Shown piece after piece: positions 20,113 to 24,735 of a stretch of DNA of 64,000 nt. A model generated the notes under the pieces. That model made no database searches, was not told the DNA's origin, and saw nothing but the letters and a program-made list of their open reading frames with translations. The position numbers were made by a program, and so were the translations under genes. Positions within the stretch are counted from its first letter, which is position 1. Every line of letters starts with the position of its first letter. The DNA comes from a phage: the sequence record PZ445517.1; one strand, given 5' to 3'.

Positions 20113-20640
20113 TTATGCGAGTACCGTCTTTAACCGTTCTTCAAACTTCCGAAGAGTATTCTGGCGTTCAGCTCTTTGCTTTTTGTAAGTTTCAATACGC
20201 TCTGAAATGAGAGTGTATCGTTCATTTACTGATTCTTTCATAAAATCAGGAATTTCACGAGAAGATTTAATCTCGTCAAATTTATCAATAACAGCTTGCT
20301 CTTCAGCAATTAAGTTATCATACATCAAAATATCTTTCTTGATGAACTCAATATCTTCTTGAGTTACACGAGATAATTTAGATGCTTTATCCTTTTTGTA
20401 CTGTTCATTAGTATCACGAGACCAGTGTAATGTACGATTTTTATTCGTATTTTTGTAAATTTCTACAATACCGATCTCATCAATAATAACGATCCAATTC
20501 CAACGAGATTTGTAAATTTGTCCTCCATCAACCGTGATTTCACCTCCGATTGAGATGTCATTAAAGAACTTGCTTTGTGCTTCAGATTTAAATTTACCAT
20601 CATTGTAGTTTACCAAGTTGAAAATATCTTTAGCATTCAT
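20113..20640 (-). CDS. hypothetical protein (175 aa)
   Basis: trimmed to ATG at 20638-20640 (MNAKDIFNLVNY) with GGAGG SD; track extension is promoter translation. Confidence 0.55.
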   Translation of the reverse strand: MNAKDIFNLVNYNDGKFKSEAQSKFFNDISIGGEITVDGGQIYKSRWNWIVIIDEIGIVEIYKNTNKNRTLHWSRDTNEQYKKDKASKLSRVTQEDIEFIKKDILMYDNLIAEEQAVIDKFDEIKSSREIPDFMKESVNERYTLISERIETYKKQRAERQNTLRKFEERLKTVLA

Positions 20641-20664
20641 TTTCTGTTCCTCCGTAGTTGATAG

Positions 20665-20700
20665 TTGTATAGTACCACAGAGGAACGGTCTTGTAAACAA
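20665..20700 (-). promoter_or_regulatory. T4-type early promoter
   Basis: minus strand GTTTACA - 17 nt - TACTAT; 21-bp core shared with promoters at 22105, 25676 and 36935. Confidence 0.55.
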
Positions 20701-21104: not shown

Positions 21105-22073
21105 TTATTTCAGAAGAGTAACCTCAGCAATTTCTTCCCAACCATTTTTGTCGGTCATAATAAAGTCAGCAAGATAAAGAGCAGTACGCAGTGAAACATT
21201 GCGTAAACGATTAACATTGACTTTCATCCATGATAATGCTTTATAAGTTTCTTCATCAGAAAGACCGCGCTTTTGCATCATGTCAGTTGAAAGAATAACA
21301 TCTTCAACCCTGACCATAATTTCTTCATTAGTGTGAACACCCAAATCCAAATAAACCGAGCGGGACACTAATGCTTGTAAGTGTGGGGCAAGTTTAGTAC
21401 CACGGTCTAATTCGCGGTCAATGTCAACGTTTGTGATAAAAACAATCGTTCCTTTAAATTCAAACTCACGCTCAATGCCTTTTTCTTCTAAGTAAGAAGA
21501 TGCAGTGCTCCAGCAGACTTTACGGGTCTCTCCAGTGTCCAGAGCAGCTTTCAGAAGATTAAGAATGTCCATATCAGAGAAAACATCCACATCATCAATC
21601 AAAAGGACAGAATTCTCTTCACGATTATTCCAAAGCTGCTCATAAAGACCAATACCAGAGATTTTACCATTAATGCTTTTATATTCAATGTATCCATTAT
21701 CATTTGCTTTATTTAAAGCTTTATCTAAAGAATACGTTTTACCAATACCTGCTGCGCCAGAGATAATTAATGAACGAATATTTCCATTAATAATACCATT
21801 CGTCATCATTCCCATAACATTAAATCTTTTATTAATGCGGGTTTTCATATCTTCATATGATTCTTTAACTTCTTCAACTTTTACACCATCATATGAAATA
21901 TCTGATTTGTAAACCCAAACACCACGACGTTTACCGTCAATTTCAACAAAAACTTTACCATCTCCTTGTGCATCTACCGGAGCATTATCTGGGAACCATT
22001 CGCCTAAGAGCTCAAAAGTTCCAGAGATTTCTTTACCGAAGTAGATACCCTTATTGATAGTTACAGTTTTCAT
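21105..22073 (-). CDS. P-loop NTPase
   Basis: Walker A SGAAGIGKTYS and Walker B-like LLIDDVD; trimmed to ATG with GGAG SD. Confidence 0.6.
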   Translation of the reverse strand: MKTVTINKGIYFGKEISGTFELLGEWFPDNAPVDAQGDGKVFVEIDGKRRGVWVYKSDISYDGVKVEEVKESYEDMKTRINKRFNVMGMMTNGIINGNIRSLIISGAAGIGKTYSLDKALNKANDNGYIEYKSINGKISGIGLYEQLWNNREENSVLLIDDVDVFSDMDILNLLKAALDTGETRKVCWSTASSYLEEKGIEREFEFKGTIVFITNVDIDRELDRGTKLAPHLQALVSRSVYLDLGVHTNEEIMVRVEDVILSTDMMQKRGLSDEETYKALSWMKVNVNRLRNVSLRTALYLADFIMTDKNGWEEIAEVTLLK

Positions 22074-22104
22074 TTTATTCTCCAAATCTGTATCAGTTGA
22101 TAGT

Positions 22105-22140
22105 TGTATAGTACCATAAAGCTTTATGCTTGTAAACAGT
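22105..22140 (-). promoter_or_regulatory. T4-type early promoter
   Basis: minus strand GTTTACA - 17 nt - TACTAT. Confidence 0.55.
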
Positions 22141-22165
22141 TTTGTGAAAAAATTTTGAAATAAAA

Positions 22166-22187
22166 AAGGGAGCCCGAAGGCTCCCTA
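22166..22187 (-). terminator. intrinsic terminator (GGGAGCC-UUCG-GGCUCCC + U-run)
   Basis: plus gggagcccgaaggctccc directly after the stop of ORF 22188-23201; U-rich tail on minus strand. Confidence 0.55.
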
Positions 22188-23201
22188 TCATTTATAATAA
22201 CTTCGGTGGTTTTCAAGATAAACCCTCTCAAGGAAGTCATCCCAGAAACCCATGTCTACTTTTTGCTGCATACCGTTTTTAGAAGCTTCAATGGATGCTG
22301 CTTCTACTTGATCGACAACATCTTCCAAAAACTCTTGAACCGTTTTAAATGGATGTTTACCCAACTTCACGTCGAGAATAAATGGAGCATCTTGGAGTGG
22401 ATAAACCAAGTCACCAGTTTTGTAAATTTCCAATAGTTGGAGCCCGCCACGGCAAGCATGACTTAGAGCTTTCCAATCAATGCCTTCATTCGCTTCAGCT
22501 TTACGAGCGCGTTCACCATATTCAGCATCAAGTTTATTCAAAGACTGCTTAAGCTCAATAAGAGAAAGCGTTGTCTGATATTTACGACCCAACACAGTAT
22601 AGAACGTTTGCGGGCCTGTTTTCTCATGATTATGGAATACCCATTCGCAGAATTCGTTTTCTGGAAGACGGTGTTTAATATCTGCAATTTTAGTACGACG
22701 TTGTCCTTGTGTTCCATCTTCTCGGTAATCAACCCACTGATCGGGGATTTGATTAACTACTTTCAATACATCACGCAATGCGGCCAAACGAGAACCCTTA
22801 ACACCATATTTAGAAGCTTGCTTGCGGACATATCCTAAATAGGATTTCATGTTAGTCGTATAAAAACGAGAACGATTGTCTTGGATAAATTTCCACACAT
22901 CAGGTAAATCAGATTTAACCACTAGTTCAGGTGGAGTGTGAAGCATATCCAATGCTACAGTTTCACCATCTGCTGCTAATTTAAAGAAATACTTAAGACT
23001 GTATAGTTCATGGTCAATATCATCTTTAGTGTTTTTAGATGATGTGTTGTTAGTGTTTTTACTCATATGCTCTTTAACATTTCCGATAAGAATATCGCGA
23101 GCAGGAGGAACAAAGATTTCTTTAAAATCCACATCAGATTCTGGAGTAGAAGTTCCATAAAGATGACTACCAAAATAGCTTTTCATTACTGTTTTCATCA
23201 T
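22188..23201 (-). CDS. nucleotidyltransferase-fold protein (Pol-beta-like NTase motif)
   Basis: GSHLYGTSTPESDVDF matches the GS...D.D NTase signature; 337 aa; ATG verified. Confidence 0.6.
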   Translation of the reverse strand: MMKTVMKSYFGSHLYGTSTPESDVDFKEIFVPPARDILIGNVKEHMSKNTNNTSSKNTKDDIDHELYSLKYFFKLAADGETVALDMLHTPPELVVKSDLPDVWKFIQDNRSRFYTTNMKSYLGYVRKQASKYGVKGSRLAALRDVLKVVNQIPDQWVDYREDGTQGQRRTKIADIKHRLPENEFCEWVFHNHEKTGPQTFYTVLGRKYQTTLSLIELKQSLNKLDAEYGERARKAEANEGIDWKALSHACRGGLQLLEIYKTGDLVYPLQDAPFILDVKLGKHPFKTVQEFLEDVVDQVEAASIEASKNGMQQKVDMGFWDDFLERVYLENHRSYYK

Positions 23202-23659
23202 TCAGCCTTATATTCAATAACAGGACATACTTTAGCTTTACGAGCTTTTAAAAATTCGACGATAATAGACTTCTTGGGTTGAATAGGAGGTAAACCTTTA
23301 TACGCCCTATCAATATTTTCTACATGTAAAGCATAATCCTTTTTCCATTTATAATCTTTATATTTTTCATGCAGTTGTGCAGGAATAACAAATGAACCAA
23401 TAATAAGTAAAACAAGCAAAATGGCAAGTATAAATGCTGATGGAATAAGAGTCCATAAACTACTAAAAATAAGCCAACGTTGTAAACTTTCTGCGCAGAT
23501 AATAGTTAGACCTGCGAGTATAGTACATCCAAAAACAGAAACGAAGAATGTAGGAATGGCAATAGACCAAAAATATGCACACAGTGTCTTAGGTCGTTTC
23601 CATTCATCATTAAACATTTTGAATAATTTATAATGCCAAGAGCTTTCATTAATAATCAT
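23198..23659 (-). CDS. integral membrane protein (153 aa)
   Basis: several hydrophobic helices; ATG verified. Confidence 0.5.
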   Translation of the reverse strand: MIINESSWHYKLFKMFNDEWKRPKTLCAYFWSIAIPTFFVSVFGCTILAGLTIICAESLQRWLIFSSLWTLIPSAFILAILLVLLIIGSFVIPAQLHEKYKDYKWKKDYALHVENIDRAYKGLPPIQPKKSIIVEFLKARKAKVCPVIEYKAE

Positions 23660-23661
23660 AA

Positions 23662-24183
23662 TTATCCTTTCATTGAAGGTGTAACAGTTGTTAAATACTT
23701 AATCATAGCTTCAGCTTCTGATTTTGATAATGAAATTTCTCCATTGTTTTGACGAATAGAAATAAAATCAGGGTGACGGTCACCACCAGCTTTCAAAACA
23801 CACATATAGGTATCAGTTTCATCTTCAATATTTGAAATGATTGAAGCAGTTCCGCATGAATGCGGTTTTTGATAAATCAATACAGCTTTTCTTCCGCCAT
23901 TTGACTGTTCATAAACTTTTAATACATCAAACAAATCACTTCTTTTATCAATAGCTAAAATGTTATTTTCATCTTCAATGTTAAATCCTTCGGATACTTC
24001 ATAAAGTGTCACCCATAAATCGTCAATATCAATAACAGCGTTCACTTTTCCATGACTTTCAAGAGCATGACAAATTTTCTTGATTTCGTCATAACTCATT
24101 TTAATAATATCATCTCCTTGAATAAGGAAGATGTCATTTTTAAATTCAACACGAATTAAACCGCTTCCACTTGAAATAAACAT
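23662..24183 (-). CDS. hypothetical protein (173 aa), paralog of 24190-24735
   Basis: C-terminus EAEAMIKYLTTVTPSMKG resembles EAIALKTYLDSVIPTMISK in neighbour. Confidence 0.5.
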   Translation of the reverse strand: MFISSGSGLIRVEFKNDIFLIQGDDIIKMSYDEIKKICHALESHGKVNAVIDIDDLWVTLYEVSEGFNIEDENNILAIDKRSDLFDVLKVYEQSNGGRKAVLIYQKPHSCGTASIISNIEDETDTYMCVLKAGGDRHPDFISIRQNNGEISLSKSEAEAMIKYLTTVTPSMKG

Positions 24184-24189
24184 ATTTCC

Positions 24190-24735
24190 TCACTTTGAAA
24201 TCATAGTTGGAATGACAGAATCAAGATAAGTCTTTAGCGCAATAGCTTCGTCTTTGGTAAATGTAACAATATGTGATCGAAAATCGTCAATTTGGCGAAT
24301 AGTTAAGACATCTCCCTCTTCATAACATTTTGATACATTTAAAAGAGTTTCATCATTCTGATTGCAAGCGTTAGTAATAATAGCATTGCAATTTTTGAGC
24401 CATTTTAAACTATGTTTTCTTTCATTAGAATAATAAAAATATTTAATCTTATCTATAAAACTATCCCAATGGATAACTGATAAGCATATTGACTCGCTTT
24501 CAATATTAAATCCTGGGCATGAAGAATAAAAATGAATTTTATGCTCATCATTAATGCTTACAATTTTATCAGTATAAGGATTTTCAATTTTGGTTAAATG
24601 AATGATTTCACTAGGCGTAAAATACAGCATATCGTCTTCTTGTGTCAAACGATACATATTATTTACTTTTTCTATAGCCAATTCACCAAAAAGTGAACTA
24701 ACTTCTAATACTAATCGTTTCGCCGCTACCGTCAT
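24190..24735 (-). CDS. hypothetical protein (181 aa), paralog of 23662-24183
   Basis: shared C-terminal motif with neighbour; ATG verified. Confidence 0.5.
   Translation of the reverse strand: MTVAAKRLVLEVSSLFGELAIEKVNNMYRLTQEDDMLYFTPSEIIHLTKIENPYTDKIVSINDEHKIHFYSSCPGFNIESESICLSVIHWDSFIDKIKYFYYSNERKHSLKWLKNCNAIITNACNQNDETLLNVSKCYEEGDVLTIRQIDDFRSHIVTFTKDEAIALKTYLDSVIPTMISK

Follow-up and report, generated by a model that had tools for sequence, protein, structure and literature searches.

Adjacent nrdC.11 and nrdC.10 genes in a T4-type phage: a long-form RlaP-family nucleotidyltransferase and an AAA+ ATPase that form no conserved module

Introduction

A 64,000-nucleotide stretch of phage DNA (sequence record PZ445517.1; hereafter referred to as the window) carries, on its minus strand, two neighboring open reading frames (ORFs), at positions 22188–23201 and 21105–22073. 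The first has the signature of a nucleotidyltransferase (NTase) of the polymerase beta (Pol-beta) type and the second has the motifs of an ATPase. Do these two genes work together, and what does each of them encode? The original prediction, based on the sequence alone, placed both in one early transcription unit and likened them to the NTase-plus-ATPase pairs of nucleotide-signaling defense and counter-defense systems. Phage T4 yielded the first system for RNA repair, in which the polynucleotide kinase/phosphatase Pnkp and the RNA ligase Rnl1 counter PrrC. The analysis presented here assigns the NTase to a family named after RNA repair, and separates it from the neighboring ATPase.

Results and Discussion

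An RlaP-family nucleotidyltransferase

In sequence comparisons, the Escherichia phage T4_ev240 was 100% identical over the region, and hundreds of T4-type phages were about 97% identical. Together with the gene names in the T4 RefSeq record, in which nrdC.11 is labeled “nucleotidyltransferase” and nrdC.10 “hypothetical protein”, these near-identical genomes assign the window to a T4-type phage and bear out the suggestion that the two ORFs correspond to T4 nrdC.11 and nrdC.10, of which they are the orthologs. Both are to be regarded as genuine genes rather than chance ORFs, because they have 2894 (NTase) and 1007 (ATPase) homologs in the databases, and are present in 1514 and 1312 records of the phage collection, respectively.

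The product of the nrdC.11 ortholog (22188–23201, minus strand) is 337 amino acids long and has the N-terminus MMKTVMKSYFGSHLYGTSTPESDVDF. The Pol-beta signature reported for this ORF is real, and consists of G11-S12 and D23-x-D25 (GS...DxD, 23127–23171), with further aspartates at D63 (23013–23015) and D85 (22947–22949). PF10127 (RlaP, “RNA repair pathway DNA polymerase beta family”) was the sole Pfam family to score above its cut-off (43.7 bits against 23; E-value 3.6e-11), with a match spanning residues 7–135 of the protein and positions 23–142 of the 249 in the model. All 40 aligned relatives, down to 33% identity, matched RlaP and no other Pfam family, and the protein was assigned to phrog_388 (nucleotidyltransferase) in PHROGs. 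An exhaustive search of 1.84 billion representatives retrieved 3432 relatives. Residues G11, S12, S22, D23, D25 and D63 were invariant in the alignment of 40 sequences, D85 was kept in at least 90% of them, and a C-terminal motif, DWKALSHAxR, was also conserved.

In a profile comparison with canonical short RlaPs (hhalign), residues 3–96 were aligned with a probability of 92.6%. The GS and DxD motifs, D63 and D85 of NrdC.11 superposed on G38/S39, D50/D52, D83 and E105 of the canonical proteins, in which G38, D50, D52, D83 and E105 are invariant and S39 is present in at least 90% of sequences. The two thus have in common an N-terminal NTase domain with GS, DxD, a third aspartate and a further acidic residue, but the canonical proteins have only about 255–270 residues, and NrdC.11 has a beta-rich insertion (at about residues 150–210) and a C-terminal half that cannot be aligned with them. 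Because the catalytic domain aligns with the short RlaPs and the C-terminal part does not, NrdC.11 is a true RlaP as far as the catalytic domain is concerned, but one of a long-form subfamily in which the C-terminal part is different.

The profile searches proposed at the outset, covering CD-NTase, MNT and polymerase beta families, did not support the signaling assignment. There was no Pfam match of the NTase to CD-NTase, SMODS or Mab-21, the NCBIfam MntA model scored 13.2 bits for a cut-off of 60, Pfam NTP_transf_2 scored 13.7 for a cut-off of 21, and the PADLOC profiles gave nothing at E≤1 for either of the two proteins. An MNT/MntA protein of a HEPN-MNT toxin-antitoxin system was rejected on the basis of these scores, of a length (337 residues) far too large for this family and of the lack of any detected HEPN partner. 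A CBASS-type signaling NTase was also rejected, as there was no PADLOC, SMODS or Mab-21 match and no cGAS/CD-NTase fold, and the neighboring genes are small phage ORFs.

In the structure predicted by AlphaFold2 (AF2), which had a predicted local distance difference test (pLDDT) score of 90.5, the NTase domain is accompanied by a beta-rich insertion (about residues 155–209) and, after residue 214, by a helical C-terminal region. When the PDB was searched with this model in Foldseek, the matches were all weak and of the generic Pol-beta kind (KNTase, ANT(4'), Hailong HalB, LinB, Tam41 and MNT; E≥3e-3), and they included neither cGAS nor a CD-NTase. The best of these neighbors, KNTase/ANT(4') and MNT/MntA, have the same two-domain layout, with an NTase domain and a helical domain, but they are only 7–9% identical to NrdC.11, with a TM-score of about 0.3 and E-values of 3e-3 or worse. 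The CD-NTases of the cGAS-DncV type (CBASS) and HalB have only the Pol-beta core fold and GS...DxD in common with NrdC.11, which differs from CBASS and Hailong proteins in the lack of a profile match and of an effector or sensor partner gene; the weak match to HalB covers about 150 residues. The structural likeness is, thus, that of a generic Pol-beta core. A search of the PDB with the NTase sequence gave no match, and the crystal structure of PfRlaP described in the RlaP preprint cited below was not retrieved from the PDB copy used, either by sequence or by fold.

Genomic context of nrdC.11-like genes

We sampled 80 bacterial loci with 8-kb flanks, containing full-length relatives of the NTase with 30–54% identity. 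A canonical short RlaP was encoded immediately downstream from the nrdC.11-like gene in 17 of the 80; these downstream proteins, of about 255–290 residues, matched PF10127 across the whole model, with E-values of 1e-72 to 1e-75. The RtcB RNA ligase was encoded within the locus in eight cases and Ro60/TROVE in four. The long form in the 17 tandem loci has about 310–350 residues, and RtcB and/or Ro60/TROVE are often found close by. This arrangement of a long and a short RlaP in tandem points to two NTases with non-redundant activities, or to a heteromer. It is not mentioned in the accessible part of the RlaP preprint (10.64898/2025.12.29.696909).

Among phages, RtcB was found near the NTase in two divergent loci, and a gene for an HD-domain phosphohydrolase (PF01966; 165–171 amino acids) lay immediately downstream from the nrdC.11 homolog on four divergent contigs. 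The HD-domain protein is a possible partner in RNA-end processing. In T4-like loci of the Aeromonas and Vibrio type (L083–L097, L100, L107 and L112), genes for nicotinamide adenine dinucleotide (NAD+) salvage often occur within a few kilobases of the NTase gene. They encode a nicotinamide phosphoribosyltransferase (NadV), a bifunctional nicotinamide mononucleotide adenylyltransferase/Nudix protein (NatV-like) and a phosphoribosyl pyrophosphate synthetase-like protein. A functional link between the NTase and NAD+ salvage was considered and rejected, this proximity being judged to be synteny by descent.

A possible role in RNA-end repair

The biochemistry of the family has been described in a preprint of December 2025 (10.64898/2025.12.29.696909), which reports that the RlaPs of Pseudomonas fluorescens and P. 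aeruginosa, the only enzymes for which this transfer has been demonstrated, add one or two nucleoside monophosphates (NMPs) to RNA 3'-OH ends. According to the same preprint, these enzymes favor Mn2+ and use neither DNA nor protein as a substrate, they prefer the broken anticodon-loop end of a tRNA mimic to its acceptor end, and they partly rescue the aminoacylation of a tRNA missing one nucleotide of the anticodon loop. The 3'-OH borne by their products is a requirement of 5'-P/3'-OH ligases, such as Rnl1, and T4 NrdC.11 is already marked there as an uncharacterized RlaP, in cluster 5 of a sequence similarity network. Iyer et al. (2021; PMC7824862) had predicted that phage RlaPs replace the nucleotides removed by RloC, ahead of ligation.

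By analogy with the Pseudomonas enzymes, we consider it rather probable that NrdC.11 is a template-independent RNA 3'-terminal NTase that patches trimmed tRNA ends for religation by T4 Pnkp and Rnl1. Its putative two-metal site, formed by GS, D23xD25 and D63, with D85, would add one or two NMPs, in an untemplated manner, to broken RNA at its 3'-OH. During infection, the enzyme may restore nucleotides trimmed from cleaved tRNAs, such as the wobble base that RloC-type anticodon nucleases excise. A functional tRNA could then be resealed by two T4 enzymes that require a 3'-OH and a 5'-P, the polynucleotide kinase/phosphatase and RNA ligase 1. A counter-defense role for the NTase is plausible in these terms, but it would work by the repair of RNA ends rather than by second messengers. 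The T4 fragment from nrdC.11 to mobD.3 can be deleted (PMC9825161), consistent with a conditional accessory role for NrdC.11. The established tRNA repair by PseT and RNA ligase 1 against PrrC takes place in the same phage and in the same presumed conflict, but NrdC.11 is not known to belong to this pathway, the genes are unlinked and a role against RloC is a prediction.

Several observations weigh against a tRNA-patching role. No alignment with canonical RlaP was obtained by hhalign for the C-terminal two-thirds of the NTase, and no Pfam family was matched when its 227 C-terminal residues were scanned alone. Only the N-terminal 135 residues or so fit the RlaP model, and the substrate or the product of NrdC.11 could, therefore, differ from those of the canonical enzymes. 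In bacteria, a short RlaP usually goes with the long form and T4 appears to be without one, so the long form may not be self-sufficient. In T4-type phages, nrdC.11 is not next to rnlA, pseT or any ligase gene, and no association with RNA ligase or repair genes was found in the window or in T4-like loci, as opposed to the bacterial and divergent phage loci with RtcB, Ro60/TROVE or a short RlaP described above. Finally, literature searches by gene name and accession retrieved no functional study of T4 NrdC.11 or NrdC.10.

A more specific form of the tRNA-repair proposal can be put forward only tentatively. NrdC.11 might be a missing third enzyme of the classical T4 tRNA repair system, re-adding the nucleotides excised by “repair-proof” RloC-type nucleases before Pnkp and Rnl1 act, and its divergent C-terminal domain, with the beta insertion, might provide a specificity for tRNA breaks that short RlaPs attain only with a long-form partner.

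It is also conceivable, if rather unlikely, that NrdC.11 is an RNA 3'-end NTase with another target, rebuilding the 3'-CCA or acceptor end of host or phage tRNAs or tailing host RNA, with a specificity set by the C-terminal domain. The 200 C-terminal residues unrelated to canonical RlaP in profile comparisons, the non-redundant activities implied by the bacterial tandems and the HD-domain protein encoded directly downstream in four phage loci are all in favor of such a target. This last feature is reminiscent of bacterial CCA-adding enzymes, in which an HD domain is present. However, the characterized RlaPs acted preferentially at the anticodon-loop break of a tRNA mimic rather than at its acceptor end, which argues against such a target. 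The patching of trimmed tRNA ends is our preferred role for NrdC.11.

NrdC.10 is an AAA+ ATPase

The Walker A and Walker B motifs attributed to ORF 21105–22073 (minus strand; 322 amino acids) were both located, with SGAAGIGKT at 21735–21761 and LLIDDVD at 21585–21605. A mechanical ORF list stretches this frame to a TTG at 22085, inside the Shine-Dalgarno region; a GGAG (22080–22083, minus strand) could be read off the sequence 6 nt before the ATG at 22073, and this ATG was the start in all 27 aligned homologs. The ORF limits given in the original prediction are right, because the TTG lies in the ribosome-binding region and the homologs begin at the ATG.

In 28 homologs, with identities down to 55%, the invariant residues were K112 (the Walker A lysine), D160/D161 (the DD of Walker B), N215 (sensor-1), R238 in the SRS motif, and R291 and R296 in the sensor-2 region of the lid. 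In the AF2 model (pLDDT 89.5), a five-stranded N-terminal beta domain (about residues 1–65) and a long linker helix precede the AAA+ base, with its helical lid. NrdC.10 is, thus, a stand-alone AAA+ ATPase, with the features that characterize this superfamily. Its Walker A motif, hhhhDD Walker B motif, sensor-1 asparagine, SRS arginine and sensor-2 arginine are like those of the MoxR proteins (NorQ, CbbQ), enhancer-binding proteins, DnaA/Hda and RFC subunits. It differs from these families in having a unique N-terminal beta domain and no conserved partner gene, and its top structural matches belong to different clades with Z scores no more than 2 units apart. PHROGs places NrdC.10 in phrog_1250 (unknown function), and its Pfam matches to AAA and STAND families were all below the threshold, as was an NCBIfam match to Hda. 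No Pfam match was found for the N-terminal domain or the lid, and a PDB search with the sequence yielded only noise (HerA, E = 0.14; a designed helical protein, E = 0.12). Assignments to the clamp loader, DnaA/Hda, MoxR and STAND groups were rejected, as no score exceeded the Pfam or NCBIfam cut-off and no structural clade was clearly best.

The AAA+ core and lid are kept in three distant relatives (L020, 5569–6759; L034, 5278–6813; L037, 5320–6828), in which the N-terminal domain is exchanged. One distant relative has a segment that looks, by eye and with no profile check, like a helix-turn-helix of the XRE type, and versions of about 500 amino acids, encoded on large phage contigs, carry about 250 amino acids of unrelated sequence. 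The differences in the N-terminal domain among distant relatives suggest a common ATPase engine with exchangeable targeting domains. NrdC.10 most likely remodels or loads a macromolecular target that would be recognized by its N-terminal domain. A search of 34 distant loci, and of a contig from Vibrio, revealed no recurrent partner of the ATPase; the neighboring genes encode a topoisomerase gp52-like protein, adenylosuccinate synthetase, a radical-SAM/QueE-like protein and structural proteins. Two database records of this protein are unusual in origin: a partial NrdC.10, 99% identical, deposited as an Enterococcus faecalis protein, and a copy 99.7% identical in a record of 142 kb that bears the name of a Pseudomonas aeruginosa phage. 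Both are probably due to contamination or mislabeling by T4-type phage DNA.

Separate transcription of the two genes

The spacer between the two ORFs is 114 bp long (22074–22187) and contains both of the elements originally described there, a terminator hairpin and an early promoter. The predicted intrinsic terminator 3' of nrdC.11 (22157–22186, minus strand) is formed by the hairpin AGGGAGCC-UUCG-GGCUCCCU (22167–22186), with a G+C-rich 8-bp stem, followed by U6; it has a folding energy of -17.7 kcal/mol (z = -3.57 with respect to shuffled sequences). In one related locus (L049), a hairpin with other stem bases (GGAACC-TTCG-GGTTCC) and an identical UUCG loop occupies the same spot. A scan also identified a sigma-70 promoter-like site of the early type (TTTACA-17-TACTAT with an extended -10 TG; 22108–22136, minus strand). 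The scan of the region found 18 sites, for 11.5 ± 3.3 in shuffled sequences, and any single site is a consensus match only. In related loci, a TTTACx-N16–18-TAxxAT element is nearly always kept about 50–65 bp before the ATPase start, whatever the gene upstream, and the ATPase gene is predicted to have its own early-type promoter. The identical pair of hexamers, with the same spacing and extended -10 TG, recurs within 1.5 kb, at 20669–20697 (minus strand). This copy lies upstream from the annotated nrdC.8 start and inside the 5' end of a TTG-extended ORF (20113–20700), which runs about 60 bp beyond the start given for this gene in the matching phage record.

The order in the direction of transcription is nrdC.11, terminator, promoter and nrdC.10. 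Upstream, the start of nrdC.11 overlaps the stop of ORF 23198–23659 (ATGA). On the basis of this overlap, the NTase gene is predicted to be translationally coupled to that ORF and to belong to the upstream unit. The early-type promoter of the original prediction is therefore retained, but its single transcription unit is not, given the terminator and promoter between the genes and the coupling of the NTase to the upstream ORF.

The two genes do not form a conserved module

Co-occurrence was assessed with hidden Markov models built from both alignments, on 78 NTase-centered viral loci (8-kb flanks) and 43 ATPase-centered loci. The ATPase was found within 8 kb of the NTase in 30 of the 78 loci, always downstream and on the same strand, and was absent from the other 48. 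None of the NTase loci with 50% identity or less had the ATPase, and seven loci with 63–82% identity also lacked it. Conversely, the NTase was present near the ATPase in the nine closest of the 43 ATPase loci and absent from the remaining 34. No nrdC.10-like gene was found in any of the 80 bacterial NTase loci. Where the genes are linked, they are separated by -26 to 2271 bp, with zero to four unrelated ORFs inserted. In Aeromonas phage 25, by contrast, about 105 kb separates the two genes, and on one IMG/VR contig of 183 kb the distance is about 40 kb. Nolan et al. (2006) found nrdC.10 in three of six T4-like genomes, and nrdC.11 orthologs in more of them. The records of the phage collection also differ by host, with 286 for the NTase and 149 for the ATPase in Klebsiella phages, versus 55 and 121, respectively, in Vibrio phages.

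nrdC.11 and nrdC.10 do not, therefore, constitute a conserved two-gene module. The best explanation for their adjacency is that this order was inherited within nrdC-mobD, a plastic region in T4-type phages: many unrelated small ORFs are syntenic across the same loci, and the shared order thus reflects descent. NrdC.10 would be the product of a separate early gene with its own promoter, and nothing ties it to the NTase. A point against this separation is that Tevenvirinae usually carry the two genes side by side and in the same orientation, making a lineage-specific cooperation possible.

In such a cooperation, NrdC.10 would assist NrdC.11, for example in RNA delivery or in the remodeling of a nuclease-tRNA complex. 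The order and orientation of the genes, NTase then ATPase, are the same in all 30 linked viral loci, including those of Acinetobacter phages with an NTase only 52–53% identical, and read-through of the terminator could co-express them. We nevertheless consider cooperation improbable, given the seven loci with a rather similar NTase and no ATPase within 8 kb, the distance between the genes in Aeromonas phage 25, the promoter-like site that nearly always precedes the ATPase gene and the synteny of so many unrelated small ORFs. The notion that NrdC.11 and NrdC.10 form an NTase-ATPase module making, sensing or destroying a nucleotide second messenger in defense or counter-defense draws on genes that are adjacent, co-oriented and early in T4 and 30 related loci, and on a weak Foldseek match of the NTase core to HalB, a defense NTase that forms oligodeoxyadenylate (E = 7e-3), but it is very improbable, as the NTase is of the RlaP family, the PADLOC, CD-NTase and SMODS searches were negative, the HalB match is no better than those to KNTase/ANT(4') and hence reflects a generic Pol-beta core, the pairing does not extend beyond close T4 relatives and is missing from most viral and all 80 bacterial loci, and the genes are separated by a terminator and a dedicated promoter and, in relatives, by inserted ORFs.

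Genes upstream from nrdC.11

The ORF to which nrdC.11 is predicted to be coupled (23198–23659, minus strand) encodes a predicted membrane protein of 153 amino acids, and members of this family are found directly upstream from the NTase gene in many T4-like loci. The mobD homing-endonuclease gene of reference T4 is absent upstream from nrdC.11 in the window, where other ORFs take its place (23198–24735, minus strand). The position of mobD is occupied by the 153-amino acid membrane-protein ORF and by an ORF of 173 amino acids (23662–24183). This second ORF resembles a tandem paralog of the adjacent MobD.1 homolog (181 amino acids; 24190–24735), as judged by eye from the likeness of their C-terminal ends.

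Annotation and implications

The name “thioredoxin” or “Thioredoxin, phage-associated” is given to NrdC.10, NrdC.11 and other nrdC.x ORFs in many GenBank and RAST-style records, and NrdC.11 is called a “putative HNH homing endonuclease” in one. No thioredoxin domain was found by Pfam in NrdC.10 or NrdC.11, and these misnomers have evidently been propagated from the names of the neighboring nrdC and mobD genes. We advise the annotation “RlaP-family nucleotidyltransferase” for NrdC.11 and “AAA+ ATPase of unknown function” for NrdC.10, and the two genes should not be handled as a defense-type operon.

The membership of NrdC.11 in this family (Pfam; 2025 preprint) and the idea of an antidote to RloC (PMC7824862) were already published, and the present work mainly confirms and puts in order the existing annotation. 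Of wider interest is a possible use of NrdC.11 by T4 against anticodon nucleases that excise nucleotides. If it is an active RlaP, NrdC.11 would be a directly testable candidate for the step by which the best-studied phage copes with nucleotide-removing nucleases, such as RloC.

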